Shown: positions 2,530 to 27,429, numbered from the stretch's first letter. The stretch is 32,000 nt of DNA from Nonlabens ponticola (GCF_003966335.1 NZ_CP034549.1:2790001-2822000), one strand, 5' to 3'. The notes: generated from the letters alone by a model not told the origin. Numbers and translations: made by a program.

Positions 2530-2550
2530 AATGTGGTGAATAATGTTTGC

Positions 2551-2564
2551 GCTTTCGCGAAAGC
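2551..2564. repeat. iterated palindrome GCTTTCGCGAAAGC, copy 1 (intergenic)
   Basis: Exact 14-mer, 21 nt after the asnB stop. Extended palindrome CGCTTTCGCGAAAGCG. Confidence 0.95.
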
Positions 2565-2569
2565 GTAAT

Positions 2570-2577
2570 TATCTTTA
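2570..2577 (+). promoter_or_regulatory. candidate -7 promoter box (TATCTTTA, imperfect)
   Basis: 7/8 match to TAnnTTTG, 7 nt upstream of the trp leader ATG. The his leader shows the same spacing. Confidence 0.25.
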
Positions 2578-2584
2578 CACTTCA

Positions 2585-2638
2585 ATGCAAGAAAGAACTC
2601 AAAACTGGTGGTGGTACAACATAGCTCAACAGCCGTGA
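2585..2638 (+). CDS. trpL: trp operon leader peptide (MQERTQNWWWYNIAQQP)
   Basis: 17-codon ORF with three consecutive TGG codons (2606-2614), followed by a terminator and trpE. Confidence 0.75.
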   Translation: MQERTQNWWWYNIAQQP

Positions 2639-2662
2639 AGTCACCCGTATGTTTAAATACAA

Positions 2663-2689
2663 AGGTCTGCTTTACGGCAGGCCTTTTTT
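2663..2689 (+). terminator. trp attenuator terminator
   Basis: AGGTCTGC (2663-2670) pairs with GCAGGCCT (2677-2684), followed by a T-run (2684-2689). GCCGTGAAG (2632-2640, spanning the leader stop codon) can pair with CTTTACGGC (2670-2678) as an antiterminator. Confidence 0.75.
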
Positions 2690-2721
2690 GTTTTAATCTT
2701 TTATTGCACTAATAAATAATC

Positions 2722-4122
2722 ATGTTCAAACCTATAACAACACATAAAAATATCCTGGCAGACACGTTGACGCCAGTAGGTATTTACATGCGGTTGAGAG
2801 ACAAGTATCCAGGTAGTATTCTATTGGAGAGTAACGAGTACGGCAGTCGCAGCAACAGCTATTCCTTTATTTGTTGTAATCCAGTAGCTAGTCTCAATAT
2901 CGACCAGAATTTCATAAGTATGAGCTATCCAGACGGCAGCTCTCATGAACAAGAATTTGATTTGTCCTATGATCTAGCTCGTGGTCTAGAAAAATTTAAA
3001 GATCAATTCTATAGGGATGATAATGAGTTTTCATTTCCTACTAATGGACTGTTTGGATACCTTACGTATGACGCGGTTCAATTATTTGAAAATATCAAAT
3101 TTGACCCTAGTAAAATTGAAACTGATGCCATACCCATGGTCAACTATCAGGTATTTCAAAATGTATTGGTTTTTGACCACTATCACAATCAGCTATATGT
3201 ATTTGACCATGCATATAATGGTGCAGATTCTAAGATGGAATCACTTGTGGACACGATAGAACATCGCGATATTGCTCGGTACAGTTTCAATACCACGCAA
3301 GCTGAACAGTCAGAGATGCAAGATCAAGATTTTAAAAATCTTGTAGCCAAGGGCAAGCAACATTGTCAGCGTGGTGATGTTTTCCAGATCGTCGTCTCAC
3401 GCAAGTTCTCGCAATCCTATAAGGGCGATGATTTCAATGTCTACAGGCAATTAAGAGCGATCAACCCTAGTCCTTATCTATTCTATTTTGATTACGGGAA
3501 CTTTAGAATATTTGGATCCTCGCCAGAGGCTCAAATATTGATCAATGACGATACTGCCAGCATTCAGCCTATCGCAGGAACCTACAAGCGTACAGGAGAT
3601 GATGCCGCAGATTTGCAAGCAGCAAATGACCTTAAAAAGGATCCTAAAGAAGCAGCAGAACATATCATGCTCGTTGATCTGGCTCGCAATGACCTAAGCA
3701 GACATGCTCGCGATGTACAGGTAACAGATTATCAAAATATTCATTTTTATTCTCATGTAATTCATATGGTGAGTACGGTTACAGGCAAAGTAGCGCAAGA
3801 AGATCGTATGGACTTGATAGGCGACACGTTTCCTGCTGGAACATTGAGCGGTGCGCCTAAATATCGCGCCATGCAATTAATCGATGGTCTAGAAAAAAGC
3901 GCTCGGCAATTTTATGGTGGTGCAATAGGATACTTAGGATTTGACGGTAGCCTTAATCACGCCATCATCATTAGAACTATACTATCACAAAATAATACCA
4001 TGTTTTACCGTGCTGGTGCTGGAGTTGTGGTCGACAGCAATCTGGATAGTGAAAATCAAGAAGTTTATAACAAAACCAACGCTTTAAGAAAAGCTATAGA
4101 ACAAGCAAATGAAACAGTTTAA
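2722..4122 (+). CDS. trpE: anthranilate synthase component I
   Basis: 466 aa. N-terminal LLES Trp-feedback motif. Chorismate-binding C-terminal domain (GTLSGAPK, GGAIGY). Confidence 0.95.
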   Translation: MFKPITTHKNILADTLTPVGIYMRLRDKYPGSILLESNEYGSRSNSYSFICCNPVASLNIDQNFISMSYPDGSSHEQEFDLSYDLARGLEKFKDQFYRDDNEFSFPTNGLFGYLTYDAVQLFENIKFDPSKIETDAIPMVNYQVFQNVLVFDHYHNQLYVFDHAYNGADSKMESLVDTIEHRDIARYSFNTTQAEQSEMQDQDFKNLVAKGKQHCQRGDVFQIVVSRKFSQSYKGDDFNVYRQLRAINPSPYLFYFDYGNFRIFGSSPEAQILINDDTASIQPIAGTYKRTGDDAADLQAANDLKKDPKEAAEHIMLVDLARNDLSRHARDVQVTDYQNIHFYSHVIHMVSTVTGKVAQEDRMDLIGDTFPAGTLSGAPKYRAMQLIDGLEKSARQFYGGAIGYLGFDGSLNHAIIIRTILSQNNTMFYRAGAGVVVDSNLDSENQEVYNKTNALRKAIEQANETV

Positions 4123-4597
4123 AACCATTTTGTCAATCATTATCGCCGCTCTCGCATTAACATCATGCGATAATGATAGAGTACTTTTCAAAACCAATCT
4201 TGAAACTAATGACCAAAAAACGAACATAACATATTCACCTAATTTGAATTTTGAATTTGTGGTCGACAGCGCATCTGTTCTTCTTGACAATGAGGATTTG
4301 AAAAATGCCTTACGTGGCGAGACGGCAAAGGGTGGAACGTTATACAAATCAGATAGATTTCAAGTGAAGTTATTCCTAACTACTTTTTATTATTCTGGTG
4401 TTTATCAATATGAATTCAAACTACGCACCTTTAGTAAAGACATGAAAATCATTGATTCTTATACTTTTTCACAAACTACTAGAGATCCTGCCTGTGCCGC
4501 TACCCTAACTAGCGATCTGGAAATCACAAAAAGTTGTGAAGATGGATCAGAAATTATTGCCCAAATTGACGATTACGGTAAATTCATTGAGCGATGA
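4109..4597 (+). CDS. hypothetical lipoprotein embedded in the trp operon
   Basis: 162 aa. Signal peptide with lipobox LTS-C (Cys20). The start overlaps the trpE end by 14 nt and the stop overlaps the trpG start (ATGA). No family recognised. Confidence 0.6.
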   Translation: MKQFKTILSIIIAALALTSCDNDRVLFKTNLETNDQKTNITYSPNLNFEFVVDSASVLLDNEDLKNALRGETAKGGTLYKSDRFQVKLFLTTFYYSGVYQYEFKLRTFSKDMKIIDSYTFSQTTRDPACAATLTSDLEITKSCEDGSEIIAQIDDYGKFIER

Positions 4598-5169
4598 AAA
4601 AGTCACCTAACATTCTTGTTGTTGACAATTACGACAGCTTTACCTACAACCTAGTTCACTATTTAGAAGATCTCGAGGCAACGGTAACGGTGTACCGCAA
4701 TGATGAAATTGAACCAGAGGATACGTTGTCGTATGACGCTATTGTACTATCGCCAGGACCTGGAATTCCCAAGGAAGCAGGAAATCTCATGGATATTATT
4801 GAGACTGCAAAAGGTAAAGTTCCGCTTCTAGGAATTTGCTTGGGACATCAAGCAATTACAGAATCCTACGGCGGCACTATCATTAATCTAGATAAAGTTT
4901 ATCACGGTATCGCGACGACAATGACACATCACGGTAGCGATTTATTTGCAGGTATTGATGAGCAATTTGAGGCTGGTAGATACCATTCTTGGAATGCTCT
5001 AAAATCTGACTTCCCAAAAGAATTAGAAGTTACAGCCATTGATGAACAAGGTGAGATCATGGCATTGCGTCACAGGGAACTACCTATTTACGGCGTGCAG
5101 TTTCATCCAGAAAGTATCATGACGCCACAAGGTAAAATTATGCTCAAGAACTTTTTAAACAGCTTATAA
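4594..5169 (+). CDS. trpG: anthranilate synthase component II (glutamine amidotransferase)
   Basis: 191 aa. GICLGHQ catalytic Cys and HPES motif of class-I amidotransferases. Confidence 0.93.
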   Translation: MKKSPNILVVDNYDSFTYNLVHYLEDLEATVTVYRNDEIEPEDTLSYDAIVLSPGPGIPKEAGNLMDIIETAKGKVPLLGICLGHQAITESYGGTIINLDKVYHGIATTMTHHGSDLFAGIDEQFEAGRYHSWNALKSDFPKELEVTAIDEQGEIMALRHRELPIYGVQFHPESIMTPQGKIMLKNFLNSL

Positions 5170-5170
5170 T

Positions 5171-6163
5171 ATGAAAGAGATTTTGAATGAGTTGTTTGAT
5201 CATAAGACGCTTTCGCGAAAGCGTGCTCACGACATACTTACAGCCATAACAGCTGGTGAAGTCAATGATGCACAGATCGCCGCATTTCTTACCGTGTACG
5301 GAATGCGCAGCGTGACAGTGGATGAGCTCGCTGGTTTCCGCGATGCTATGCTGGAGCAGGCTTTGCTTATTGATCTAACCAAATACAATCCTATTGATTT
5401 ATGTGGTACTGGCGGCGATGGCAAGAACACTTTTAATATCAGTACACTAGCAAGCTTCGTTACTGCTGGTGCTGGAGTGAAAGTTGCCAAACACGGTAAT
5501 TATGGAGTAAGTTCTGTAAGCGGTTCTAGTAATGTAATGGAATCCATGGGTTTCAAGTTTACCAATGATTTTGAAACGCTGGAAAGGCAAATTGATCAAG
5601 CGAATATATGTTTCCTGCACGCTCCCTTATTTCACCCTGCGATGAAAGCAGTAGCACCAATTAGAAGAGCACTCGGAATCAAAACATTTTTCAATATGTT
5701 GGGTCCACTTGTAAATCCAGCAAGACCCAAATTACAAAGTGTTGGTGTTTTTAATTTGCAATTAGCGCGCAACTATGAATATCTGTTCCAAAATGAAGAA
5801 GGAAAACGATATGCTATCCTGCATGCACACGACGGTTATGACGAGGTGAGTTTGACGGGAAAAACAAGAGTTGCTGGTAACAATGGTGTGGTAGACTTAA
5901 AACCAGCAGACTTCAACTTAAATAAATTGACGCTGGAACAAATTGCTGGTGGCGAAACCGTTGAAGACGCAGCTGCCATCTTCAAAAATGTATTGGAAAA
6001 TAAGGCTACAGAGGCTCAAAAATCAGTCGTAATAGCAAACGCGGCAACCGCTATCGCTGTGGCTCAAGAAGTTTCACTTGTTGAAGCAGTTGGTAAAGCA
6101 AGAACATCATTAGAATCTAGCAAAGCGCTGGAATGCTTCAATAAATTACTGGAATTACAATAA
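5171..6163 (+). CDS. trpD: anthranilate phosphoribosyltransferase
   Basis: 330 aa. GTGGDG PRPP-binding motif and KHGN motif. Confidence 0.95.
   Translation: MKEILNELFDHKTLSRKRAHDILTAITAGEVNDAQIAAFLTVYGMRSVTVDELAGFRDAMLEQALLIDLTKYNPIDLCGTGGDGKNTFNISTLASFVTAGAGVKVAKHGNYGVSSVSGSSNVMESMGFKFTNDFETLERQIDQANICFLHAPLFHPAMKAVAPIRRALGIKTFFNMLGPLVNPARPKLQSVGVFNLQLARNYEYLFQNEEGKRYAILHAHDGYDEVSLTGKTRVAGNNGVVDLKPADFNLNKLTLEQIAGGETVEDAAAIFKNVLENKATEAQKSVVIANAATAIAVAQEVSLVEAVGKARTSLESSKALECFNKLLELQ
5209..5222. repeat. iterated palindrome copy 2 (inside trpD, read as LSRK)
   Basis: Exact 14-mer. Extended palindrome ACGCTTTCGCGAAAGCGT. Confidence 0.95.
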
Positions 6164-6250
6164 CATCAAATACGTTTACTATTGTGGGATTAATTCCGAA
6201 ATAATGAACCAAAAAGACTTAATACTTTGTACTAAATACTTCATACTATC

Positions 6251-7054
6251 GTGGAAGACATACTGAAAAAGATTACTGACCGCACCAAAGCAGATCTAAT
6301 GATCAGGAAGCAGAATACCTCACTTTCAGATCTTCGAGCTATGGAAAACTATTCTCGTGAGACCATATCATTTCACGACGGAATAAAATACGGTAGTGGT
6401 ATAATCGCAGAGCACAAAAGACAAAGCCCATCCAAAGGTTCTTTTAAATGCCCAGCAAGCCTTGAGGATATCGTCAAGGGTTATGAGGCTGCTGGTGCCA
6501 GTGCTATCAGTTGTTTGACTGATGAGCCTTTTTTTGGAGGTACTTTAAAAGATCTTCAAGAGGCTAGAACTCATGTTGACATTCCTATCCTGCGCAAAGA
6601 TTTTATGGTCGATCTATATCAGGTACACGAGGCACGCGCTTATGGCGCCGATGCTATATTACTCATCGCGGCCTGCTTAAATGACGAGGAACTTATCACA
6701 CTGTCTGCAGAGGCTATAAATCTTGATTTGGATATTCTATTCGAGGTTCACGATCTGGAAGAACTTAACCGAGTCAAGAAAGTAGTCAAAGACTTTAAAT
6801 CCAGCTCTTATGTCATAGGTGTCAATAATCGCGATTTGAAAAAATTTAAGACTGATATTCAAATAAGCAAAGACTTATTAGAGCACTTCCCTAAGAAAGC
6901 GCTGGCCATCAGCGAGAGTGGTATTTCAGGTCCAGAAGTGGTTCAAGAGTTGCAAGATTTAGGTTATCGCGGTTTTCTCATTGGTGAGAATTTCATGAAA
7001 ACTAACGATCCTGGACGCAGCTGTGCCAAGTTTATAAAAGCGACGACGCTATGA
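6251..7054 (+). CDS. trpC: indole-3-glycerol phosphate synthase
   Basis: 267 aa from a GTG start. IAEHKRQSPSKG motif. 4-nt overlap with trpF. Confidence 0.92.
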   Translation: MEDILKKITDRTKADLMIRKQNTSLSDLRAMENYSRETISFHDGIKYGSGIIAEHKRQSPSKGSFKCPASLEDIVKGYEAAGASAISCLTDEPFFGGTLKDLQEARTHVDIPILRKDFMVDLYQVHEARAYGADAILLIAACLNDEELITLSAEAINLDLDILFEVHDLEELNRVKKVVKDFKSSSYVIGVNNRDLKKFKTDIQISKDLLEHFPKKALAISESGISGPEVVQELQDLGYRGFLIGENFMKTNDPGRSCAKFIKATTL

Positions 7055-7689
7055 TGATCAAAGTTTGCGGCATGCGAGAAACGAGCAATATCGATGAACT
7101 ACAACAACTCGATATTGATTTTATGGGCATCATCCGCTATCCTAAAAGCAAGCGGTATGTTGACGATCAGCAAAAGGCTGCCATTGAGCAATGCACGATG
7201 AATAAAGGCACCGTTGGCGTTTACGTCAATGCGTCCCTACAAGACATCTTGCAGGATATCATTCCCTTACAGATGGATGTTGTACAGTTGCACGGTGATG
7301 AGGATTCCGCTTTCGCGAAAGCATTACTAGAATTAGACATCAAGGTATTTAAGGCATTTCAAATTACCGATGACTTTGACTTTGATATTCTGAAAGATTG
7401 GGAACAACTAGCTGAAGCCTATCAAGGAAAATTATTTTTCCTATTTGACACAGCAACCAAAAATTATGGCGGCAGCGGCAAGAAATTTAATTGGCAATTA
7501 CTCGACAACTATCAAGGAATGGTGCCTTTTCTATTAAGCGGTGGCATTGCGCCAGATGATGCAGAGTCCATTAAGAATATCAAACACGACATGTTTCTGG
7601 GAGTGGATCTCAACTCGCGATTTGAGGACGAGCCAGGAATTAAAAATATCAAAGCTATCAAAGGCTTTGTTGAAAAATTGAGAAAATGA
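7051..7689 (+). CDS. trpF: phosphoribosylanthranilate isomerase
   Basis: 212 aa. N-terminal IKVCGM motif. Overlaps trpC and trpB by 4 nt each. Confidence 0.9.
7309..7322. repeat. iterated palindrome copy 3 (inside trpF, read as AFAKA)
   Basis: Exact 14-mer with a GATTCC 5' flank. Confidence 0.95.
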
Positions 7690-8861
7690 GCTATCAAGTA
7701 GATGAGAAAGGATTTTACGGCGAGTTCGGCGGTGCTTTCATACCAGAATTGCTGTATCCTAATATTGAGGAACTTCAGGAAAACTATCTGAAGATCGAGA
7801 AAAGTGAGGAATTCCAACAGGAGTTTCACCAACTGCTCAAGGATTATGTAGGCCGCCCAACACCCTTGTTTTTGGCAAAGCGACTGTCTGCTAAATACGG
7901 CGCTGAAATCTGGTTAAAACGCGAAGATCTTTGTCACACTGGTGCTCACAAAGTAAATAACACGATAGGCCAAATCCTACTTGCAGAAAAACTCGGCAAG
8001 AAACGCATCATCGCAGAAACCGGTGCAGGTCAACATGGTGTCGCCACCGCAACTGTTTGTGCCTTAAAAGGTCTGGATTGTATCGTCTATATGGGCGAGA
8101 AAGATATTGAACGACAAGCACCCAACGTTGCACGCATGAAAATGCTCGGCGCAGAGGTTAGACCAGCAACCAGCGGCTCTAAAACGCTAAAAGATGCTAC
8201 AAACGAGGCTATGCGCGACTGGATCAACAATCCAGAAGACACGCACTACATTATAGGATCGGTAGTTGGACCGCATCCCTATCCAGATATGGTGGCGAGA
8301 TATCAAGCCATCATTTCTAAAGAGATCAAAGAGCAAATGCAAGGTTTGCCTGATTATGTTATTGCTTGTGTAGGTGGTGGAAGTAATGCCATGGGTGCAT
8401 TTTATCACTTTTTGGATGATCCAACAGTCAAACTCATAGGTGTTGAAGCGGCTGGAATGGGCGTAGATACAGACAAAACTGCCGCGACTTTGACCTTAGG
8501 AACACCAGGAGTTTTACACGCCAGCAGATCCATCATGATGCAAGATAAAGACGGTCAAGTAGTAGAACCACACAGTATAAGTGCTGGACTTGATTATCCA
8601 GGCATTGGACCAGCACACGCTTGGTTAAAAGTTTCTGATCGTGCTAAGTACATGGCTGTCACCGATGCCGATGCGTTGACTGCTGCTGTAGAATGCAGCC
8701 GATTAGAAGGCATTATTCCTGCCTTGGAAACTGCTCACGCTTTTTCTGTTTTGAAAGATCTAGAATTGAAACCAACAGATCGTGTGGTGATCAACTTATC
8801 AGGTCGTGGTGATAAAGATATGGACACCTATATGCGTGAATTGAAACTCAACGAACTTTAA
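7686..8861 (+). CDS. trpB: tryptophan synthase beta chain
   Basis: 391 aa. [12 protein letters not shown]-lysine motif and GGGSNA motif. Confidence 0.97.
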
Positions 8862-8864
8862 GCT

Positions 8865-9647
8865 ATGCAGAACAAACTGACCCAACTATTTGCTAGCAAG
8901 CCTAAGAATTTGCTCAATATATTTTTTACCGCTGGTTACCCTAAACTTGAAGACACAACGGTTATTTTAAAAGCCTTGGAAGAATCCAAAGTGGACTTGG
9001 TAGAAATCGGTATTCCCTTTAGTGATCCGCTGGCAGATGGGCCTACGATTCAAGAGAGCAGCAAAAAGGCGCTGGAGAATGGTATGTCCATTGAAAAGCT
9101 GTTCACCCAATTGGAACAATTCAAAAATGAAAATCCAGATTTCAATACGCCAATCTTGTTGATGGGATATTTGAATCCCGTGATGCAATTTGGACTGGAT
9201 AAGTTCTGCGCACGTTGTGCTAGCGTTGGCATGGATGGATTGATCATCCCAGATTTACCCATGTATTCATATCAGATGGAGTTCAAGGATACTTTTGAGA
9301 AGCATAACATTTCTAATGTATTCTTGGTGACGCCACAGACTTCAGAGAAACGTATTAGGGAGATTGATGCCAATTCGACCGGCTTTATTTATGCAGTGAG
9401 CAGCGCCAGCACCACAGGTACAAAAGCAGATTTCTCTGCCGCTGCAGACTATCTGGGAAGATTGCGAGACATGAATTTGAACACTCCAGTCTTAACCGGT
9501 TTTAATATCAAGAACAAGCAAAACTTTCAGGATGCCTGCAACTATGTGGACGGCGCAATCATAGGTAGCGAGTTTATCAGACAAATTTCTGACAGCTCAG
9601 ACCTCGAGAGAACTGTTTCAGAGTTTGTAAAATCTATTAAAGGTTAA
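8865..9647 (+). CDS. trpA: tryptophan synthase alpha chain
   Basis: 260 aa. PFSDPLADGPTIQ motif. Confidence 0.95.
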   Translation: MQNKLTQLFASKPKNLLNIFFTAGYPKLEDTTVILKALEESKVDLVEIGIPFSDPLADGPTIQESSKKALENGMSIEKLFTQLEQFKNENPDFNTPILLMGYLNPVMQFGLDKFCARCASVGMDGLIIPDLPMYSYQMEFKDTFEKHNISNVFLVTPQTSEKRIREIDANSTGFIYAVSSASTTGTKADFSAAADYLGRLRDMNLNTPVLTGFNIKNKQNFQDACNYVDGAIIGSEFIRQISDSSDLERTVSEFVKSIKG

Positions 9648-9662
9648 ATTATTTGTAAGTAC

Positions 9663-9676
9663 GCTTTCGCGAAAGC
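9663..9676. repeat. iterated palindrome copy 4 (intergenic)
   Basis: Exact 14-mer, 15 nt after the trpA stop. Extended 20-bp palindrome TACGCTTTCGCGAAAGCGTA (9660-9679). Confidence 0.95.
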
Positions 9677-9687
9677 GTAACACCTAT

Positions 9688-9695
9688 TACATTTG
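9688..9695 (+). promoter_or_regulatory. candidate -7 promoter box (TACATTTG)
   Basis: Perfect TAnnTTTG match, 7 nt upstream of the his leader ATG. Confidence 0.4.
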
Positions 9696-9702
9696 CACTG
9701 CA

Positions 9703-9750
9703 ATGAATAACAACGCAACACATCACCATCATTTTGACACTTACCTGTAG
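9703..9750 (+). CDS. hisL: his operon leader peptide (MNNNATHHHHFDTYL)
   Basis: 15-codon ORF with four consecutive His codons (9721-9732), followed by a terminator and hisG. Confidence 0.75.
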   Translation: MNNNATHHHHFDTYL

Positions 9751-9790
9751 GCGAGCAAAAAATGTATTGATGTAACTCAACATATTTAAA

Positions 9791-9817
9791 AACCCGTCTA
9801 TTTCAGGCGGGTTTTTG
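9791..9817 (+). terminator. his attenuator terminator
   Basis: CCCGTCT (9793-9799) pairs with AGGCGGG (9805-9811), with one G-U pair, followed by TTTTT. Confidence 0.7.
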
Positions 9818-9818
9818 C

Positions 9819-9924
9819 ATTTCTGCGCAGGCAGAAATCTCTGACTCGGGAAACCTGAAGCGACCGAATCAGATGAAAACAATAGTTTCATGATTTTCCC
9901 CTTTGGGGAAATGTCCGCAGGACA
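9819..9924 (+). repeat. train of five back-to-back hairpins in the hisG 5' region
   Basis: ATTTCTGC-GCAG-GCAGAAAT (9819-9838). TCTGACTCGG...CCGAATCAGA (9840-9873). ATGAAA...TTTCAT (9873-9891). TTTCCCC-TTT-GGGGAAA (9895-9911). TGTCC-GCA-GGACA (9912-9924). Confidence 0.7.
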
Positions 9925-9945
9925 ATGGGGCCAATAATAAAAATT

Positions 9946-10797
9946 ATGATCAGAATAGCAGTACAGAAATCAGGAAGGTTAAGTGACAAGTCGCTACAAT
10001 TATTAAAAGATTGTGGGATCAAATTTGATAACGGGACACGCAAATTGAGCGCTAAAGCAAAGAACTTCCCAATGGAGATTCTTTTCTTGAGAGACGACGA
10101 TATTCCTCAATATGTCGCACAAGGCGTGGCAGATCTTGGAATTCTAGGACTAAATGAGGTCGAAGAGAAAGACCAAAAAGTCGACGTGATCAAGCAGCTA
10201 GGTTTTGCAGGTTGTAGATTGAGTCTTGCCGTTCAGAAAGATGTCAATTACACAGGTCTGGAATGGTTCAACGGCAAGCGTGTGGCGAGTAGTTATACAA
10301 CCATCGTCAAAAAGTTCTTTGCCGATAAAAGCATCAACGCAACCACTGAAGAAATAGGTGGCAGCGTAGAAATCGCTCCAGGAATAGGCCTCGCGGAAGG
10401 AATTTGCGACATCGTTTCGACTGGTTCTACATTGATCATGAACGGATTGAAAGAAGTAGAAACGGTCATGTACAGTGAGGCAGTTCTTATTTCTAATCCA
10501 TCATTAAACGATGAGAAAAAAGAGCTATTGGACAAACTCATGTTCCGCATGGATGCGGTCATGAATGCATCTAAAAACAAATACATCTTGCTGAATGCAC
10601 CTAACGATAAGGTGGATGAGATTTCTGCGCTGTTGCCAGGAATGAAAAGCCCGACGGTATTACCGCTGGCCGAAGAAGGTTGGTGCAGTTTACATTCTGT
10701 TATTGAGGAAAATGATTTTTGGAATGTGATTGATCAGCTCAAGGAAGCTGGCGCTCAAGGTATTTTAGTCAGCCCAATTGAAAAACTAATCGTCTGA
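9946..10797 (+). CDS. hisG: ATP phosphoribosyltransferase, long form
   Basis: The ORF is open from ATG 9925. I prefer ATG 9946 (MIRIAVQKSGRL) because it aligns with the conserved HisG N-terminus and 9925 abuts a hairpin. About 283 aa including the C-terminal regulatory domain. Confidence 0.9.
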   Translation: MIRIAVQKSGRLSDKSLQLLKDCGIKFDNGTRKLSAKAKNFPMEILFLRDDDIPQYVAQGVADLGILGLNEVEEKDQKVDVIKQLGFAGCRLSLAVQKDVNYTGLEWFNGKRVASSYTTIVKKFFADKSINATTEEIGGSVEIAPGIGLAEGICDIVSTGSTLIMNGLKEVETVMYSEAVLISNPSLNDEKKELLDKLMFRMDAVMNASKNKYILLNAPNDKVDEISALLPGMKSPTVLPLAEEGWCSLHSVIEENDFWNVIDQLKEAGAQGILVSPIEKLIV

Positions 10798-12092
10798 TGG
10801 AAATCGTACTCAACCCATCTACGAGCCAGCAGGCTAGTTTATTGGAGAGACCGATGAAACAAAGGTCTGAAGTGGATAGCGCTGTAAAAGACATTATCCG
10901 ACTCGTGCGCGATAATGGCGATCAGGCATTGATTGCATTTGCACAGCAATTTGACAACGCCACCATTACAGATTTGAGAGTCTCTGCTCAAGAAATTACC
11001 GCGGCAGCTGCTCAAGTTCCAGCAGATTTGAAATCTGCAATCCAGACAGCCTACGACAACATCTATAAGTTTCACCAGGCTTGTTTTACTCGTGAATATC
11101 CAGTAGTAGAAACCATGCCTGGCATGACGTGCTGGAGAAAATCATTGCCTATTCAAAAAGTAGGATTGTATATTCCTGGAGGCTCGGCACCGCTGTTCTC
11201 GACAGTTTTGATGCTGGCAGTACCTGCAAAAATTGCTGGAAACAAGCAAGTAGTCCTTTGTAGCCCAACGGATGAGCATGGAAATATAAATCCAGTGGTT
11301 CTGTACACCGCAAGTCTTTGTGGCGTCACAGAGATCTATAAAGTTGGCGGTGCTCAGGCGATCGCTGCCATGACACACGGCACGCAAAGCGTTCCAGCGG
11401 TACACAAGATTTTTGGTCCTGGTAATGCTTTTGTCACTAGAGCAAAAGAATTGGCACAGCAGCAAGGTGTCGCGATCGACATGCCGGCTGGACCTAGCGA
11501 GGTTTTGGTCATTGCAGATCAACACGCTAATCCAGAATTCGTGGCTTCAGACTTGTTAGCTCAAGCAGAACACGGTCACGATTCCCAAGTAATTCTACTT
11601 ACAGATTCTGAGAAACTTGCTAAGGATGTAGACGATGCAGTAAAGTCTCAAATAAGCACGCTTTCGCGAAAGCAAACTGCCGAAGCTGCCCTGCAGAATA
11701 GTAGAACTATCGTGTTACAAAGCATTACAGAATGTGTAGCCTGGTCTGATGTATATGCACCAGAGCACTTAATTATCAACACACAAGATGCTGAGGCAGT
11801 AGCAAATCAAATCGAAGTAGCTGGCTCCATATTTATAGGTTCTTACACTTGTGAGAGCTTGGGCGATTATGCCAGCGGCACCAATCATACCTTGCCTACT
11901 TACGGTTATGCAAGGAATTACAGCGGTGTGTCTGTCGATAGCTTTGTCAATAAAGTGACCTACCAGAAAGCGACCGCTCATGGGTTACAAAACCTAGGTC
12001 CTGCTGTTGAAATCATGGCAGCCGCCGAAGGTCTGGATGCGCATAAAAATGCGGTGAGTGTAAGATTAAAAAGTTTAGAAAATAACGATTAG
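10797..12092 (+). CDS. hisD: histidinol dehydrogenase
   Basis: 431 aa. QAEHG motif. Start overlaps the hisG stop. Confidence 0.95.
   Translation: MEIVLNPSTSQQASLLERPMKQRSEVDSAVKDIIRLVRDNGDQALIAFAQQFDNATITDLRVSAQEITAAAAQVPADLKSAIQTAYDNIYKFHQACFTREYPVVETMPGMTCWRKSLPIQKVGLYIPGGSAPLFSTVLMLAVPAKIAGNKQVVLCSPTDEHGNINPVVLYTASLCGVTEIYKVGGAQAIAAMTHGTQSVPAVHKIFGPGNAFVTRAKELAQQQGVAIDMPAGPSEVLVIADQHANPEFVASDLLAQAEHGHDSQVILLTDSEKLAKDVDDAVKSQISTLSRKQTAEAALQNSRTIVLQSITECVAWSDVYAPEHLIINTQDAEAVANQIEVAGSIFIGSYTCESLGDYASGTNHTLPTYGYARNYSGVSVDSFVNKVTYQKATAHGLQNLGPAVEIMAAAEGLDAHKNAVSVRLKSLENND
11660..11673. repeat. iterated palindrome copy 5 (inside hisD, read as LSRK)
   Basis: Exact 14-mer. Confidence 0.95.
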
Positions 12093-12095
12093 CAG

Positions 12096-12115
12096 ATTCC
12101 GCCCTGCGGCGGAAT
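12096..12115. repeat. GC-rich hairpin module ATTCCGCC-CTGC-GGCGGAAT
   Basis: Perfect 8-bp stem with a 4-nt loop in the hisD-hisC spacer. No U-tract. Confidence 0.7.
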
Positions 12116-12127
12116 GACAATACAAGA

Positions 12128-13345
12128 ATGAGTTTCAATTTAAAAAACATAGTCCGCAAAAACATCTGGGATTTAAAGGCCTACTCTAGCGCACGCAGCG
12201 AATTCAAATTGTATGGCGATGTCTCGCCAGCGAGAGAATCTGCCGAGAGCAAAAAGGAGCTTACGCTACTAGATGCTAACGAGAATCCTAACGATCCAAA
12301 AGCTCATAACTCTGAACTCATAACTCCTAACTTAAACAGATATCCAGATCCATTGCAAAGTGAGATCAAGGAAATATTGAGCGAGCAAAAAGGCATATCT
12401 ACTGATCAGATTTTTGTGGGTAACGGTAGTGATGAAGCCATTGACCTGCTCTACCGCATTTTTTGTGAGCCTGAAAAAGATAGTGTAATTACGTGCCCGC
12501 CTACTTATGGAATGTACGAGGTGAGTGCAGCGATCAACGATGTAAAGGTGATCGAGGTGCCTTTGAATGAACGCTTTGAATTGAACGTGAAACAGATCCT
12601 GAAACGAGTTCAGGATGACAAGTCGGTAAAGCTTTTATGGATCTGTTCTCCTAATAATCCTACAGGAAATATACTGCTCAAAGCTGATTTGGAACACGAC
12701 TGGCAAGCAGAAAACTATACCAAAGGCGGCATGATGGACATGCCGTACAATCCAGAATTTGAAGCTGAATTAAAAGAGAATAAAAAACTTATGGACCAGC
12801 TCATCGGTAGATTTGACGGTATCGTGGTGGTAGATGAAGCCTATCAGGATTTTACAGAGAACCAAAGTTTTATCAGTAGACTGGAAGATTATCCTAATCT
12901 AGTGGTGCTGCAGACCATGTCAAAAGCACATGGACTAGCAGGCGCACGAACAGGTTTTGCTTTTGCCAGCAAAGAGATCATCGCACTTTTCAATAAGACA
13001 AAACCGCCATACAATGTCAATGAGCTTTCTCAGAAAGCAGTGGTAGCTGCTCTCAAGAATATTGACAAAACAAGATCACAAGTAGAAGAATTGATCGACA
13101 ACCGTGAAATCCTCATTGCCGATTTGCAACAACTTAGCTTCGTAAAACAAGTGTTTCCTAGTGAGGCGAACTTTGTTTTGGCAGAGGTTGAAGATGCGAC
13201 CGCGGTTTACAATTACCTGAAAGACAAATCTCTGATTGTACGTAACCGTAGCAGTCAGATACAGAATACGTTGCGATTTACGGTTGGAACTAGGAAAGAG
13301 TGTGAGGCGTTGATGGAGGCGTTGAAAGAATATAAAAACAGTTAG
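12128..13345 (+). CDS. hisC: histidinol-phosphate aminotransferase (expanded)
   Basis: 405 aa. SPNNPTGN, DEAY and the MSKAHGLAGAR PLP-lysine motifs. About 45-50 aa longer than typical HisC because of internal extra segments. Confidence 0.93.
   Translation: MSFNLKNIVRKNIWDLKAYSSARSEFKLYGDVSPARESAESKKELTLLDANENPNDPKAHNSELITPNLNRYPDPLQSEIKEILSEQKGISTDQIFVGNGSDEAIDLLYRIFCEPEKDSVITCPPTYGMYEVSAAINDVKVIEVPLNERFELNVKQILKRVQDDKSVKLLWICSPNNPTGNILLKADLEHDWQAENYTKGGMMDMPYNPEFEAELKENKKLMDQLIGRFDGIVVVDEAYQDFTENQSFISRLEDYPNLVVLQTMSKAHGLAGARTGFAFASKEIIALFNKTKPPYNVNELSQKAVVAALKNIDKTRSQVEELIDNREILIADLQQLSFVKQVFPSEANFVLAEVEDATAVYNYLKDKSLIVRNRSSQIQNTLRFTVGTRKECEALMEALKEYKNS
12594..12623 (+). repeat. 30-nt hairpin module AGATCCTGAAAC(G/A)AGTTCAGGATGACAAGT, copy in hisC
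   Basis: 29/30 identical to 17072-17101 in hisIE. Contains the 8-bp stem ATCCTGAA/TTCAGGAT. Read in the same frame (ILKRVQDDK). Confidence 0.85.
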
Positions 13346-13361
13346 TTGAATTAAAAAAGCG

Positions 13362-13381
13362 AAGCCGTCCAGCGATGGCTT
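13362..13381. repeat. GC-rich hairpin module AAGCCGTC-CAGC-GATGGCTT
   Basis: Located in the hisC-hisB spacer. The preceding 15-mer AAAGCGAAGCCGTCC (13356-13370) is identical to 16312-16326 inside hisF. Confidence 0.7.
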
Positions 13382-13386
13382 GACTC

Positions 13387-14496
13387 ATGAAAAAAGTATT
13401 ATTTATAGATCGCGACGGGACCATCGTCAAGGAGCCGCCAACTGATTATCAGCTGGATAGTTTTGAGAAGCTGGAGTTCTTGCCTATGGCAATTACCCAA
13501 TTGCACCGTATTGCACGAGAGTTGGATTATGAGCTGGTAATGGTGACCAATCAGGACGGTCTGGGAACGGATAGCTTCCCTGAAGATACCTTCTGGCCAG
13601 TGCATAATTTGATGATGGACATTCTTGAAAAAGAAGGCGTGACATTTAGTGAGGTTTTGATTGATCGTTCTTTTCCAGAACAGAACGCACCGACTCGCAA
13701 ACCTCAAACTGGTTTGTTGACACACTATATTAAAGGCGACTATGACCTTGCCAACAGCTTTGTCATAGGCGATCGCAACAGCGATATGCAGCTCGCCAAA
13801 AATTTGAGCTGCAAAGGAATTCAGCTGCCATCGATTACAGACGACACGACTTTTGAAGACGAATTGGTTGTTTTAAAAACCGATTCTTGGAAAGATATTT
13901 TTCAGTTTTTAAAAGGTCAACCGCGCAAAGTATCGGTAAGCCGTAAAACCAATGAAACCGATATCAACATCACGCTCAATCTGGACGGCTCTGGAAACGG
14001 AACGATAGATACAGGTTTGAAATTCTACGATCACATGCTGGAGCAATTGCAGCGCCATGGTTCGCTGGACTTGGATATCAAAGTGAACGGTGATCTGGAA
14101 ATCGACGAGCACCACACCATTGAGGACACCGCTATTGCGCTAGGTGACGCTTTCGCGAAAGCGTTATCCTCTAAAAAAGGGATTAATAGATATGGGTTTT
14201 TGTTACCTATGGACGACTCATTGGCCAAAGTAGCAATTGATTTTGGCGGAAGACCATGGATCGTTTGGGAAGCAGAATTTAAAAGAGAATACGTGGGCGA
14301 TATGCCAACCGAATTGTTTTTCCACTTTTTCAAATCCTTCAGCGATGCAGCAAAGTGTAACTTGAATATGAAAGTGGAAGGCGACAATGAGCACCACAAA
14401 ATTGAGTCGCTGTTCAAAGCTTTTGCGAAAGCGATAAAAATGGCAGTCAAACAAACAGGTGACGGTAAATTACCTAGCACTAAAGGCACATTATGA
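13387..14496 (+). CDS. hisB: bifunctional histidinol-phosphatase / imidazoleglycerol-phosphate dehydratase
   Basis: 369 aa. N-terminal HAD motif FIDRDGT. C-terminal IGPD domain ([24 protein letters not shown]). Confidence 0.95.
14149..14162. repeat. iterated palindrome copy 6 (inside hisB, read as AFAKA)
   Basis: Exact 14-mer. Extended palindrome ACGCTTTCGCGAAAGCGT. Confidence 0.95.
14419..14432. repeat. decayed palindrome copy GCTTTTGCGAAAGC (inside hisB)
   Basis: 13/14 match. The single C->T change is at the first C of the central CGCG. Read as AFAKA. Confidence 0.6.
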
Positions 14497-15137
14497 TTGC
14501 AATCGTAAAATATAACGCAGGAAATATAGGCAGCGTGACAAATGCGCTCAATCGGCTGGGCGTGAAAAATAAAGTCACGGATGATTCTGCGGAATTGAAA
14601 ACCGCCGACAAAGTGATTTTCCCAGGAGTTGGCGAGGCTGGTACAGCGATGAACTATTTGAAAGAACGAGGATTAGATCAGGTTTTGAAAAGCTTGGATC
14701 AGCCGTTTCTTGGTATATGTCTTGGCATGCAATTGATGTGCAACCACAGTGAAGAAGGTAACACAGAATGTCTAGGAATTTTTGACACAAACGTCAAGCT
14801 GTTTCAATCCAAAGAGTTCAAAGTGCCGCATATGGGATGGAACAGTTTGAATACTGAATATCGATCAACGAATGACGAATTTGGAATTGAGAACAATCAA
14901 AAATCAAAAATCGTTAATCAGCAATCGTTAATCCTGCAAAGCTTACCGCAGCAGGCAGATGTGTATTACGTGCACTCCTATTATGCGGAGCTATGTGAGG
15001 ATGCTGCTGCTACTTGCGATTACATTTTGCCTTTTAGCAGCATGCTGCAAAAGGATAATTATTATGCGACGCAGTTCCATCCTGAAAAGAGCGCTGGAGT
15101 TGGTGAGCAGATTTTGAAGAATTTTATTTCCTTATGA
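14493..15137 (+). CDS. hisH: imidazole glycerol phosphate synthase, glutamine amidotransferase subunit (expanded)
   Basis: 214 aa. GICLGMQ and FHPEKS motifs. About 20 extra residues between the MGWN and VHSY motifs. Confidence 0.93.
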
Positions 15138-15898
15138 GAATAATACCAGCGATAGATATCATTGACGGGAAATGCGTGAGGCTTTCTCAAGGTGATTACA
15201 ATCAAAAAACGGTCTATAATGAAGATCCGCTAGAGGTGGCTAAGGAATTTGAAGCCAATGGTATTCAATACTTGCACCTGGTCGATCTTGATGGAGCCAA
15301 GAGCGCTCATGTGGTCAACTGGAAAATATTGGAGCGTATAGCTAGTCAGACCGATTTGAAGGTTGATTTTGGCGGTGGCGTGAAAACAGACGACGATATA
15401 AAAGTTGTTTTTGAAAGTGGTGCCAAACAAGTTACGGGTGGCAGTATAGCCGTTAAAGATCCTGAGACTTTTGAAGGATGGATCGAGAAATACGGCAGCG
15501 ATAAAATCATACTTGGTGCAGACGCAAAGGATGGCATGATTGCCACACACGGTTGGCTAGAAAGTAGCGAGTTGGAAGTGGTAAAATTTATCAAAGAATG
15601 GAATAAAAAAGGCATTGAATACGTCATTTGTACGGATATCGCCAAAGACGGTATGCTTGCTGGGCCAAGCTATGATTTGTATAAAAAGATTCTTGACCTC
15701 AACACGACAAGTCCAGCAGAGGCCATCATCCCATCAGCAGATGATTTTGACGACGGCATTAAACTAATCGCCTCTGGTGGTGTGGCCGTTGCAGATGATC
15801 TACATCGCTTACGCGAAATGGGTTGTGAAGGAGCAATCGTAGGAAAAGCTTTTTATGAAGGTAGAATCAGTTTCAAAGAGTTGAGAGAATTTATATGA
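15134..15898 (+). CDS. hisA: ProFAR isomerase
   Basis: 254 aa. N-terminal [15 protein letters not shown] motif. 4-nt overlaps with both neighbours. Confidence 0.93.
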
Positions 15899-16692
15899 GC
15901 CTCAAAAAAAGAATTATACCATGCCTAGACATCAAGGATGGTCGCACCGTCAAAGGAATAAACTTCGTTGGACTGCGCGATGCTGGTGATCCAGTACAGT
16001 TGGCACAGCAGTATGCCGATCAAGGTGCTGATGAATTGTGCTTTCTCGACATCACGGCTACCGTAGAAAAACGGGAAACGCTTGTACCACTAGTCCGCGA
16101 GATCGCTGCTGTGTTGAATATTCCGTTCACCGTTGGTGGTGGCATTAATGATGTCAAACTCGCCAAAGAAATCATCAAGGCTGGAGCCGATAAAATTGCG
16201 GTCAATAGCGCCGCCGTTCACAGACCTGAATTGATCAATGAATTGGCTGCCGAATTGGGAAATCAGTGTGTGGTGGTGGCTGTCGATACTAAGCGTATAG
16301 CGTTAAGCGATAAAGCGAAGCCGTCCCTCGACGGCTGGAAGGATAAGGTGTTTGTCTCTGGTGGTCGCACGGAAACTGACAAAGAAACAATAGCGTGGTG
16401 TACAGAATGTGAGCAACGTGGTGCTGGAGAGATTTTGCTAACAAGCATGGATCACGATGGTACTAAAAACGGATTTGCTTTGGAGATTACGGATACGCTT
16501 TCGCGAAAGCTAAATATACCGATCATCGCATCTGGTGGTGGTGGTACGGCTGCTCATTTTGAGGAATTATTCAAAGATACCCATGCCAGCGCAGGACTCG
16601 CGGCAAGTATATTCCATTTTGGTGAGTTACCAGTGCCTGAATTGAAAAAGCAATTGGCAGACGCTAATGTAGAGGTGAGAATAGTTATTTAA
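15895..16692 (+). CDS. hisF: imidazole glycerol phosphate synthase cyclase subunit (expanded)
   Basis: 265 aa. [16 protein letters not shown] motif and [15 protein letters not shown] motif. Confidence 0.95.
16312..16336 (+). repeat. hairpin module AGCCGTC-CCTC-GACGGCT with a shared 15-mer, inside hisF
   Basis: The 15-mer 16312-16326 is identical to 13356-13370. 7-bp stem at 16319-16336. Lies in a roughly 10-aa extra segment of HisF ([12 protein letters not shown]). Confidence 0.7.
16497..16510. repeat. iterated palindrome copy 7 (inside hisF, read as LSRK)
   Basis: Exact 14-mer. Confidence 0.95.
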
Positions 16693-17379
16693 ATGGACAT
16701 GATGAAACCAGATTTTTCTAAATACAATGATGGACTTGTTCCCGCAATCATCCAAGACGCTTCCAGCGGTAAGGTTTTGATGTTGGGATACATGAATGAA
16801 GAAGCCTATCAAAAGACCGTAGACGATAAACGCGTGACCTTTTTTTCACGCAGTAAAAATAGACTGTGGACTAAAGGCGAGACTTCCAAAAATTATCTGG
16901 ATGTCATGAGTATGGCTTTGGATTGTGATCAGGATGCAATTCTAATCAAAGCTCACGCCCATGGCCCGACTTGTCACACAGGTAGCGAATCCTGTTTTGA
17001 TGCAAATAGCAGCAATGAAGATGATGAAATGTTACGTTTTCCTGCCTCGCCGGCAGGCAAGCGCAAAAGCGAGATCCTGAAACAAGTTCAGGATGACAAG
17101 TTCACCATCAACGATCTTGAAAAAACCATTCATCAAAGAATTGATGACAAGGTAGAAGGTTCTTACACGTACTCATTGATCCAAAAAGGGATTAATAAAG
17201 TGGCTCAAAAAGTAGGCGAAGAAGCGGTAGAAACCGTTATAGATGCCATCAACGGCAAGGATGAAGACTTTCTTTATGAAGCGGGCGATTTGATGTATCA
17301 CTATCTCGTTTTACTCAAAGCTAAAGGATACTCGTTAGCTGATATTGAAGTTGAGTTGGCAAAGCGTCATGGCAAGTAG
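16693..17379 (+). CDS. hisIE: bifunctional phosphoribosyl-AMP cyclohydrolase / phosphoribosyl-ATP pyrophosphatase (expanded linker)
   Basis: 228 aa. GPTCHTGSESCF cyclohydrolase motif followed by a PRA-PH helical domain. About 30 extra residues lie between the two domains. Confidence 0.93.
   Translation: MDMMKPDFSKYNDGLVPAIIQDASSGKVLMLGYMNEEAYQKTVDDKRVTFFSRSKNRLWTKGETSKNYLDVMSMALDCDQDAILIKAHAHGPTCHTGSESCFDANSSNEDDEMLRFPASPAGKRKSEILKQVQDDKFTINDLEKTIHQRIDDKVEGSYTYSLIQKGINKVAQKVGEEAVETVIDAINGKDEDFLYEAGDLMYHYLVLLKAKGYSLADIEVELAKRHGK
17072..17101 (+). repeat. 30-nt hairpin module, copy in the hisIE linker
   Basis: 29/30 identical to 12594-12623. Read as ILKQVQDDK. Preceded by a second hairpin, CCTGCC-TCGCC-GGCAGG (17041-17057). 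Confidence 0.85.
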
Positions 17380-17493
17380 TTGCCATTTGAAGCGATTCAA
17401 GCGGTATAAAAATCATTGCTTGAGCCTATGACTATTATTGGAATAACTTTAAACTAATTCCTAGAGGTATTACCGTCAAGATTTTCAAAATTT

Positions 17494-17510
17494 CTGAGCT
17501 CGACAGGATT
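17494..17510 (-). repeat. tRNA-Arg 3'-end fragment, copy 3 (15/17)
   Basis: CTGAGCTCGACAGGATT compared with GTGACCTCGACAGGATT at the tRNA 3' end. Confidence 0.75.
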
Positions 17511-17607: not shown

Positions 17608-17614
17608 AATAATA

Positions 17615-17631
17615 GTGACCTCGACAGGATT
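17615..17631 (-). repeat. tRNA-Arg 3'-end fragment, copy 2 (17/17)
   Basis: GTGACCTCGACAGGATT is identical to 17726-17742. Confidence 0.85.
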
Positions 17632-17707: not shown

Positions 17708-17726
17708 TTATTGCGGTATTCATTCG

Positions 17727-17800
17727 TGACCTCGACAGGATTCAAACCTGTAACCCTCAGAGCCGAAATCTGATGCGCTATTCAGTTGCGCCACGAGGCC
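17727..17800 (-). tRNA. tRNA-Arg (anticodon TCG)
   Basis: Manual cloverleaf fold of 74 nt. 7-bp acceptor stem with one G-U. D stem GCGC/GCGC. Anticodon stem TCAGA/TCTGA with loop TTTCGGC. 5-nt variable loop. T stem ACAGG/CCTGT. CCA is not encoded. Confidence 0.85.
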
Positions 17801-27402: not shown

Positions 27403-27429
27403 AAAGGAGCGCGACGAGGATCTAAATTT

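Follow-up and report, generated by a model that had tools for sequence, protein, structure and literature searches.

Two in-frame copies of a short hairpin module in the histidine operon of Nonlabens ponticola

The question raised by this locus is why two unrelated enzymes of histidine biosynthesis should share thirty almost identical nucleotides. In a 32,000-nt stretch of the Nonlabens ponticola genome (GCF_003966335.1, NZ_CP034549.1:2790001-2822000; the whole stretch is referred to as the window), the genes hisC and hisIE of one his operon each contain a copy of a 30-nt module built around a short hairpin and read in the same frame (Table 1). Our preferred answer, which we regard as probable, is that a tagged hairpin repeat of the REP (repetitive extragenic palindrome) type occupies permissive segments of both proteins. 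Other explanations, in which the hairpins are templated patches, selected structures of the his operon, local copies of each other or convergent coding sequences, are weighed below.

The module and its wider family

The 29/30 identity between the two 30-mers and the 8-bp inverted repeat within them, both reported in the first-pass annotation of this DNA, were reproduced. The sole mismatch is the central base of the loop, and no match to the 30-mer at three or fewer mismatches was found in 100 dinucleotide-preserving shuffles. Both copies contain the inverted repeat ATCCTGAA/TTCAGGAT (8 bp, loop of 5 nt), with a predicted hairpin energy of about -10 kcal/mol as RNA and about -6.5 kcal/mol as DNA. 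Copy 1 is translated as ILKRVQDDK (context QILKRVQDDKS) and copy 2 as ILKQVQDDK (context EILKQVQDDKF). The plus strand of the module has TGA in two of its three frames (AGA TCC TGA; GAT CCT GAA ACA AGT TCA GGA TGA), so that an intragenic sense copy is readable only as ILKQVQDD. The common reading frame noted in the first-pass annotation therefore exists, as both copies read ILK(R/Q)VQDDK, but it is forced by the stop codons of the other frames; judged from the DNA alone, it is a consequence of the common orientation and not a second coincidence.

The same hairpin was found far beyond Nonlabens. One representative genome per species was scanned with the pattern ATCCTGAAAC-N-AGTTCAGGAT; at least 120 stretches contained the hairpin, compared with approximately one expected, and a further 34 stretches of viral contigs carried it together with GAC. 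Additional copies, which the first-pass annotation had proposed to look for, are thus numerous. The hosts among the matches listed included Patescibacteria, Sphingomonadales, many Bacteroidota, Treponema, Gastranaerophilales, Elusimicrobiota and a Rickettsia endosymbiont, and no Nonlabens record was among these matches (at least 120). The consensus was derived from 178 copies, a set that includes the 34 viral stretches chosen with GAC in the pattern. Their flanks were unrelated except for RG directly 5' of the hairpin and GAC-R on its 3' side: position -1 was G in 169/178 copies, the tag GAC was present in 168/178, and the base after it was G or A in 157/178. Since the flanks are alike only at RG and GACR, the conserved unit comprises 27 nt. 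The 5' dinucleotide was AG in 127/178 and GG in 40/178 copies, and the GG (tgg) copies, which give a CCA tail, were alphaproteobacterial. Sister hairpins with other stems, e.g., of the GCTGAA..TTCAGC and CCCGGG..CCCGGG types, were located near the copies in many loci.

Approximately 102 of the 135 genomic copies (about 75%) were located outside open reading frames (ORFs) of at least 150 codons. The other 33 were in stop-to-stop ORFs of that length, 15 in sense and 18 in antisense orientation, and the intragenic copies used all three open frames (ILKQVQD, HPELVSGS, ILNLFQD); the possibility that copies are always in frame, and always in the same one, was thus not borne out. The host genes tested (n = 5) and confirmed with Pfam encode RarA/MgsA, glutamate synthase (GltB), isoleucyl-tRNA synthetase (IleRS), an iron-containing alcohol dehydrogenase (Fe-ADH) and a PMT_2/TPR protein. 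More than one copy was present on some contigs (L numbers denote individual loci or contigs), with four in L146, four in L095 and three in L041. Related phage-like IMG/VR contigs (L143, L146, L151, L153, L157) carried several copies each, all four of L146 being on one strand, which suggests that phages can carry the hairpin elements between hosts.

Across the whole window, Rfam 15 returned only tRNA at the gathering score, and around both copies there was nothing or chance snoRNA hits with E>1. Literature text searches with the strings GTTCAGGATGAC, KQVQDD, ILNLFQD and GCTTTCGCGAAAGC gave unrelated primer matches only, and nothing relevant was found on Nonlabens palindromic repeats or flavobacterial uptake sequences.

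The hisIE and hisC sites and their surroundings in Nonlabens

The closest relatives of both HisIE and HisC all belong to Nonlabens (Flavobacteriaceae), the top HisC being that of N. marinus (86%). The plus strand of the window carries the trp operon (approximately 865-9647) and, downstream of it, the his operon (9925-17379). Neither host ORF is truncated and the Pfam domains of both are intact, and copy 2 is located between the PRA-CH and PRA-PH domains of the bifunctional HisIE. An assembly artefact was ruled out, as independent Nonlabens genomes have the same units at the same sites.

The hisIE site is polymorphic for an insertion. The outgroup HisIE proteins comprise 195-200 aa with almost no linker, compared with 201-242 aa in Nonlabens, where the whole difference is in the linker; the 228-aa protein of the window has a linker about 30 aa longer than those of the outgroups, as had been noted in the first-pass annotation. 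No ILKxVQDDK-type peptide was present in the outgroup HisIE proteins compared. In N. marinus, the empty site has the sequence AGC GAA AAC AAG TTC ACC, and in the window the filled site is AGC GAG ATC CTG AAA CAA GTT CAG GAT GAC AAG TTC ACC. The difference of 21 nt equals the hairpin length, and no target site was duplicated. The window, YIK11, N. agnitus and L123 have the hairpin; N. marinus, Hel1_33_55, MB-3u-79 and N. tegetincola lack it. Its 3' arm has decayed from TTCAGGAT to TTAAAGAT in YIK11 and N. agnitus, so that the pairing is lost there.

A second palindrome lies next to this site. Just 5' of the hairpin, relatives have CGC TTT CGC GAA AGC (RFRES), a copy of the genus-wide palindrome GCTTTCGCGAAAGC that is intact in N. 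marinus and MB-3u-79. The 21-nt PASPAGK unit that splits the degenerate palindrome of the window (Table 1) is also found in YIK11 (L121, 10322), and the palindrome of N. agnitus, CGCTTTGGCGAAAGCG, is uninterrupted there. A like hairpin, CCTGCC-N5-GGCAGG, is translated as LPAGQAG in an unrelated ORF of L119.

At hisC, alternative palindromes alternate at one codon position (Table 1). The distance between PPTYGMY and SPNNPTG is 57 aa in the HisC of the window, 56-57 aa in nearly all of about 85 Nonlabens sequences and mostly 55 aa in outgroups, and the E. coli protein is 3 aa shorter than that of the window in this segment, in agreement with the normal segment length proposed in the first-pass annotation. 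No copy of the module was found in the hisC of YIK11, N. agnitus or N. antarcticus. In a neighbour-joining tree of HisC built with the segment masked, the four types were interspersed, even among near-identical sequences of N. ulvanivorans and N. xylanidelens, and the residues beside the site co-varied with the allele type. The simplest reading would be that a few old hisC alleles have been exchanged by homologous recombination. The hairpin of allele A', ATTGCGCA..TGCGCAAT, is itself dispersed: it was found in at least 120 metagenome stretches, mostly from gut, with AG...GACA flanks. The sequence downstream of it in hisC was in none of the metagenome stretches listed (at least 120), and the hairpin was absent from the viral contigs searched. 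Derivation of A' from A by compensatory drift in situ was ruled out, since A' is a dispersed repeat in its own right. The hisC hairpin has decayed in N. spongiae and N. antarcticus. In the hisC of L130 (10484), the loop of a decayed A hairpin contains a nested 24-nt unit (TSTSLSGT), and the same 18-nt core, ACTTCGACT(T/C)CGCTCAGT (TSTSLS/TSTPLS), recurs in the HisIE linker of N. antarcticus (L129, 16940).

Tagged and nested palindromes explain the hypervariable HisIE linker and the variable loops of HisC, HisA and HisF in Nonlabens. The peptides ILKQVQDD, IPAKAGI and RFRES are translated repeats, and such stretches should not be taken for protein motifs in annotation.

Two further inserts were observed in HisC. 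One of about 40 aa, LKADLEHDWQAENYTKGGMMDMPYNPEFEAELKENKKLMDQLIGRF (window 12680-12810, residues ~185-228), is conserved across the genus and is the main reason why the protein, at 405 aa, is longer than usual; E. coli HisC lacks it, and the alignment splits into two stretches there. Near the N-terminus, a second hypervariable insert (window 12218-12253, residues 31-42) amounts to 8-17 aa relative to L123/L124, with an equivalent region in L125 and L129. In N. marinus, this insert consists of two short hairpins, approximately TTTCCC-CTTTC-GGGAAA and TGTCCGC-CGCAA-GCGGACA.

The perfect 14-nt palindrome GCTTTCGCGAAAGC occurs in the window as 11 exact copies and two with one mismatch, against 0.01 expected. 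It is found in genes and spacers alike, where it is read as AFAKA, LSRK or RFRES, and its spacing is strikingly regular: nine times in a row, the gap between exact copies measures 1997-2677 nt. Its density was 0.19-0.58 per kb in 11/11 Nonlabens loci, and the copies keep their relative positions in the window, N. marinus, Hel1_33_55 and, in part, N. spongiae, which fits orthologous sites. The motif resembles a highly iterated palindrome common to the genus and may be akin to uptake sequences or to HIP1, or may serve in chromosome organisation; no literature on it was found. This array may be more unusual than the hisC/hisIE module itself.

Just 3' of hisIE is a tRNA-Arg (TCG) gene (17726-17800, minus strand). 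Partial 21-nt copies of its 3'-end (17722-17742), with 81-86% identity, are located at 17611-17631 (111 nt off) and 17490-17510 (232 nt off), and an inverted 37-nt match (76%) at 27427-27463. These may be remnants of integration at the tRNA.

Table 1. Positions of the features discussed and alternative sequences at the hisC site
Feature	Position	Strand	Sequence or product	Remarks
hisC ORF	12128-13345	+	405 aa	PF00155 aminotransferase class I/II, histidinol-phosphate aminotransferase; hosts copy 1
hisIE ORF	16693-17379	+	228 aa	PF01502 and PF01503; hosts copy 2
Module copy 1	12594-12623	+	AGATCCTGAAACGAGTTCAGGATGACAAGT	30-mer in hisC
Copy 1, hairpin	12596-12616	+	ATCCTGAA-ACGAG-TTCAGGAT	preceded by AG
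Copy 1, tag	12617-12620	+	GACA	followed by AGT
Module copy 2	17072-17101	+	AGATCCTGAAACAAGTTCAGGATGACAAGT	30-mer in HisI-HisE linker of hisIE
Copy 2, hairpin	17074-17094	+	ATCCTGAA-ACAAG-TTCAGGAT	preceded by AG
Copy 2, tag	17095-17098	+	GACA	followed by AGT
Split degenerate palindrome copy	17035-17071	+	left half CGTTTT, right half CGCAAAAGCG	left half 17035-17040, right half 17062-17071
21-nt unit (PASPAGK)	17041-17061	+	hairpin CCTGCC-TCGCC-GGCAGG	nested at centre of degenerate 14-16-nt palindrome CGCTTTCGCGAAAGCG
Related hairpin, 4-nt loop (CGTC-1-like)	12096-12119	+	ATTCCGCC-CTGC-GGCGGAAT + GACA	35-nt hisD-hisC spacer; about -13 kcal/mol as RNA
AT-start 8-bp hairpin, 4-nt loop	9819-9838	.	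ATTTCTGC-GCAG-GCAGAAAT	no GAC tag; spacer upstream of hisG
14-nt palindrome sites	2551, 5209, 7309, 9663, 11660, 14149, 14419, 16497, 18784, 20961, 23638, 25604, 31650		GCTTTCGCGAAAGC	one mismatch at 14419 and 25604
hisC allele A			ILK(Q/R)VQDD; ATCCTGAA..TTCAGGAT	window, N. marinus, Hel1_33_55, N. ulvanivorans, others
hisC allele A'			IAQQVRND; ATTGCGCA-ACAAG-TGCGCAAT-GAC	DNA-confirmed; MB-3u-79, others
hisC allele B			DAFAKAK; GACGCTTTCGCGAAAGCG, palindrome GCTTTCGCGAAAGC	YIK11, N. agnitus; decayed in N. antarcticus
hisC allele C			EISACAEIK; ATTTCCGC-CTGC-GCGGAAAT	L123, N. xylanidelens
hisC allele without palindrome			VNNQITNNENLK	N. tegetincola

Concentration in the his operon and the competing explanations

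In the preferred explanation, both 30-mers would be copies of one variant of the CGTC/TGTC-tagged REPs, with TGTC, an AT-start 8-bp stem, a 5-nt loop, the second stem arm and a tail on the complementary strand. Such elements are dispersed and mostly extragenic in many phyla, and the Nonlabens his operon would have been colonised in sense orientation. A copy in a coding region would survive only if its frame is open (the one sense frame, ILKQVQDD) and the protein tolerates the peptide. The tolerant place would be the flexible inter-domain linker in HisIE and, in HisC, the end of a surface-variable segment before the conserved strand with SPNNPTG. The hairpins may spread in single-stranded form through a trans-acting, unlinked activity or by replication template switching; existing hairpins and microhomology may make a site a repeated target, and homologous recombination would shuffle alleles among Nonlabens lineages. 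Mobility is indicated by the filled and empty hisIE sites, by the nesting of palindromes and by the cross-phylum and viral distribution. hisC and hisIE have no special relation to each other: each copy fits the pan-bacterial consensus and has its own phylogenetic distribution. We infer that both belong to the family but have separate histories, without a duplication specific to these genes.

Several observations weigh against this explanation. The four palindrome alleles of hisC and the palindrome-free allele of N. tegetincola all have 56-57 aa in the segment, i.e., there was no net insertion in hisC. The module is also present without a gap, relative to E. coli RarA, in the RarA of L094, which belongs to another phylum, so that length-neutral occupancy is not unique to hisC; plain transposition would not be expected to produce it. 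The 32-kb window holds only two copies of the variant and one related hairpin, and dispersal within this genome is to be read on that scope. An all-versus-all comparison of 2751 ORFs from 154 loci revealed no linked gene: what recurred was a widespread family of ABC transporters (7 loci) and the genes of a single group of related phages. No ORF family beyond common housekeeping or phage genes was common to the 154 loci, which fits the lack of a dedicated transposase in the literature, and no trans-acting enzyme was identified.

The distribution within Nonlabens is likewise far from random. In a census of 11 loci (234 kb), perfect AT-start 8-bp hairpins with loops of 4-5 nt numbered 20 in 85 kb of his operon and two in 149 kb outside it, an approximately 17-fold enrichment that is inflated because orthologous sites are not independent counts. 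One of the two outside hairpins is located in the spacer upstream of hisG, and none was found in the adjacent, co-oriented trp operon in this census. The hairpin at 9819-9838 is possibly a further, tag-less relative. GAC-tagged hairpins numbered 16 in about 200 kb of Nonlabens loci, compared with about 0.45 in shuffles, and 16/16 were on the sense strand. They occupy six distinct sites (hisD-hisC spacer, hisC, hisH-hisA spacer, hisA, hisF and hisIE), and the chance that 6/6 sites fall within about one third of the sequence is approximately 0.002. The hairpins are also conserved. The hisC hairpin and tag differ between the window and N. marinus at 0/24 nt, including 0/8 third positions, compared with 42/180 nt and 28/60 third positions in the 60 flanking codons; in Hel1_33_55, two changes have occurred, neither at a third position. 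The hairpin of the hisD-hisC spacer is identical in N. marinus, and in L123 it reads ATTCCGCT-TTAT-AGCGGAAT, a compensatory change of a C-G into a T-A pair. The conserved silent sites and the compensatory change suggest selection or homogenisation and not a neutral passenger.

Translated tagged hairpins were also found in HisF (the loop after VVAVDTKR and the C-terminus) and in HisA (the loop before KLIASGG) of L121, L122, L126, L127, L128 and L129, with the peptides IPGQARND, IPDQARDD, IPHQVRND, ELRVQND and C-terminal IPAKAGI. The latter is the HisF C-terminus of N. agnitus, with the variants IPAKAKI, IPAKAAI and IPAKIGV in YIK11, N. marinus and Hel1_33_55. The hisF and hisA of the window have no intact tagged hairpin. 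GC skew was tried as a guide to replication direction in a test of strand-specific insertion; it follows the coding strand and was uninformative. The his operon of N. antarcticus (L129) contains extra genes (listed regions 6207-7108, 8224-9915, 14131-14661 and 15968-16650), among them a pair with RES domains 5' of hisG, a fusion of HisD with a DUF559/MTES_1575 domain and, ahead of hisIE, a DUF6364-PIN pair, and an acetyltransferase is located between hisA and hisF in this species and in MB-3u-79 (L126, 14040-14573). In Nonlabens, the his operon seems to be a hot spot for insertions in general.

The length-neutral copies, frozen silent sites and sense-only clusters of one operon are unlike neutral random insertion. 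Two further explanations are considered possible but rather unlikely. The hairpins could have been placed not by simple insertion but by a length-preserving, microhomology-guided templated patch, in which replication switches template to another copy, and could in Nonlabens additionally be kept on the sense strand, acting in his mRNA. This is suggested by the length neutrality in hisC and RarA, by the four hairpin families at one hisC codon position, and by the native ILK codons of hisC and the ACAAGT of the empty hisIE site, which already match the element. The other explanation, to which we give a similarly low probability, treats the hairpins as selected cis-acting structures of the his operon, i.e., barriers for mRNA processing or stability, translational pause sites or a DNA binding site, for which any member of the superfamily would serve and the peptide would be a tolerated by-product. 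The his-operon enrichment with none in the trp operon, the sense-strand bias, the recurrence at six sites, the conservation of hairpin nucleotides above nearby silent sites, the compensatory pair change and the presence of four palindromes at the same hisC site in most Nonlabens species are all consistent with it. However, this 27-nt unit is known from hundreds of unrelated settings, both in other phyla and on viral contigs, the hairpin has decayed in the hisIE of YIK11 and N. agnitus and in the hisC of N. spongiae and N. antarcticus, N. tegetincola and the outgroups have none at hisC or hisIE, and no Rfam family was matched. Apart from the non-independence of the orthologous sites, local transposition or whole-allele recombination would also cluster and orient the copies.

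A true donor-recipient pair, in which one copy served as the local template for the other (hisC for hisIE or the other way round) during replication template switching or short-patch conversion at microhomology, appears improbable. The two copies have the same orientation, are 4.5 kb apart in one operon and share three extra bases, AGT at +5 to +7, and AAGT follows GAC in just 2/178 family copies; the empty hisIE site of N. marinus (AAC AAG TTC) provides ACAAGT microhomology with the right flank of the hisC copy, and the length neutrality in hisC and RarA suggests templated replacement over insertion. Against this, the three shared bases are weak (p ~0.03), and the loop base is G in the hisC copy, as in N. 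marinus, but A in the hisIE copy. The distributions are also discordant: the hisC copy is shared by N. marinus, Hel1_33_55 and N. ulvanivorans, of which the first two lack the one in hisIE, YIK11 and N. agnitus have the hisIE copy but another palindrome in hisC, and the hisIE hairpin of L123 has different flanks. Convergent coding, in which both proteins need ILKxVQDDK and codon usage yields the same DNA, has a negligible probability. Native-like peptides do exist, such as ILKAIDNNSK at the module position in HisC of the outgroup Tamlana and IREAIERAR in RarA, and the peptide resembles surface sequence. Chance and convergence are nevertheless excluded by the 29/30 identity including all silent positions, the perfect 8-bp stem, the wide, mostly non-coding spread of the 27-nt unit (at least 120 genomes) and the lack of such a peptide in the HisIE outgroups.

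CGTC-type tagged hairpins occur widely, and no transposase is known to be linked to them. With its 21-nt filled and empty sites, nesting, four-way alternation in hisC and conserved hairpins, the Nonlabens his operon is an unusually clean natural experiment, in which two questions can be tested: do such elements insert or overwrite, and does selection act on them as RNA or DNA structures?

Relation to known repeat systems

CGTC-tagged REPs have the tag CGTC, often TGTC, a stem of 8-9 bp, a loop of 4-5 nt and a short tail, and the stem almost always opens with A-T pairs at positions one and two (PMC3733652). The tail consensus of CGTC/TGTC REPs is CCA, and TGTC and CCTC are tag variants; the repeats occur in five phyla, including Bacteroidetes and Spirochaetes, are mostly extragenic with some in-frame intragenic copies, and no dedicated transposase was found for them (PMC3733652). 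The reverse complement of our module is TGTC-ATCCTGAA-CTYGT-TTCAGGAT-CT. TGTC abuts the hairpin foot on the complementary strand in both copies, the stem ATCCTGAA/TTCAGGAT encloses the loop ACRAG, the related Nonlabens hairpins are all AT-start with loops of 4 or 5 nt, and a minority of copies (33/135) is in long ORFs. The tail of the Nonlabens module is CTG or CTC (the complement of upstream CAG/GAG), compared with the published CCA. Judged by this architecture, the module belongs to the CGTC/TGTC-tagged REPs. Of the families CGTC-1 to CGTC-4, the closest by described architecture is CGTC-2, with an 8-bp stem and a 5-nt loop as in the module. The likeness extends to the TGTC tag, AT-start stem, presence of a short tail, occurrence in several phyla, extragenic majority, in-frame peptides of 8-9 aa and lack of a transposase. 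In the text and supplements of PMC3733652, neither the ATCCTGAA..TTCAGGAT stem nor its peptide occurs, and the lists contain neither Nonlabens nor hisC and hisIE (or hisF and hisA, which host hairpins in relatives); nor does the paper report elements that gather in a single operon, that replace one another family by family at an orthologous codon position or that leave the host protein unchanged in length.

Other short repeats are more distant. The GTAG REPs and the REPIN-RAYT system share with the module short tagged hairpins that are dispersed, often as inverted dimers, sometimes in frame, and thought to move as single-stranded DNA. Here, however, the tag is TGTC and not GT[AG]G, no RAYT-like or other shared gene was found beside the copies in the 154 loci, and the stem is identical across phyla, whereas REP sequences are usually species-specific. 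Miniature inverted-repeat transposable elements (MITEs) comprise 70-300 bp with terminal inverted repeats and a target duplication, unlike the unit of 21-27 nt, which produced no duplication at hisIE. HIP1 of cyanobacteria and DNA uptake sequences are palindromic motifs that also occur inside coding regions without changing gene length; they comprise 8-12 nt, are lineage-specific and occur about once per kb. The length-neutral copies in hisC and RarA, and above all the 14-nt palindrome GCTTTCGCGAAAGC of Nonlabens, resemble them, but the 27-nt module is found across phyla, is rare per genome region and forms a clear 21-nt insertion in hisIE.

The first-pass annotation had likened the module to Rickettsia palindromic elements (RPEs). 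In R. conorii, RPE-6 has been equated with CGTC-1 and RPE-4 with CGTC-4 (Di Nocera, De Gregorio and Rocco 2013, PMC3733652), and intragenic CGTC copies are tabulated as peptides of 8-9 aa, e.g., WIPAFAGMT, DSRLRGND and VIPAKAGI (PMC3733652), the last of which includes the IPAKAGI that ends HisF in N. agnitus. The IleRS of the Rickettsia endosymbiont (L024) contains our hairpin beside the CGTC-1-type peptides CHSREGGNP and DSRLRGND. Like RPEs, which are in-frame palindromic repeats in surface-exposed parts of functional genes (Ogata et al. 2000, 2002, as cited in PMC3733652), the two copies are located in intact ORFs, and that of hisIE is an in-frame insertion of 21 nt. Unlike them, the hisC copy does not lengthen the protein, and classical RPE-1 comprises 100-150 nt and is restricted to Rickettsia, compared with a unit of 21-27 nt in many phyla for the Nonlabens type. 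The suggested resemblance is therefore upheld at the level of the defining architecture, that of the superfamily which includes RPE-4 and RPE-6, and in the narrow sense the module is no RPE. As the class has been described already, no new kind of element is established; the novelty lies in the host and the genes concerned, in the clustering within the his operon and in the fact that palindrome families alternate at a single codon position.

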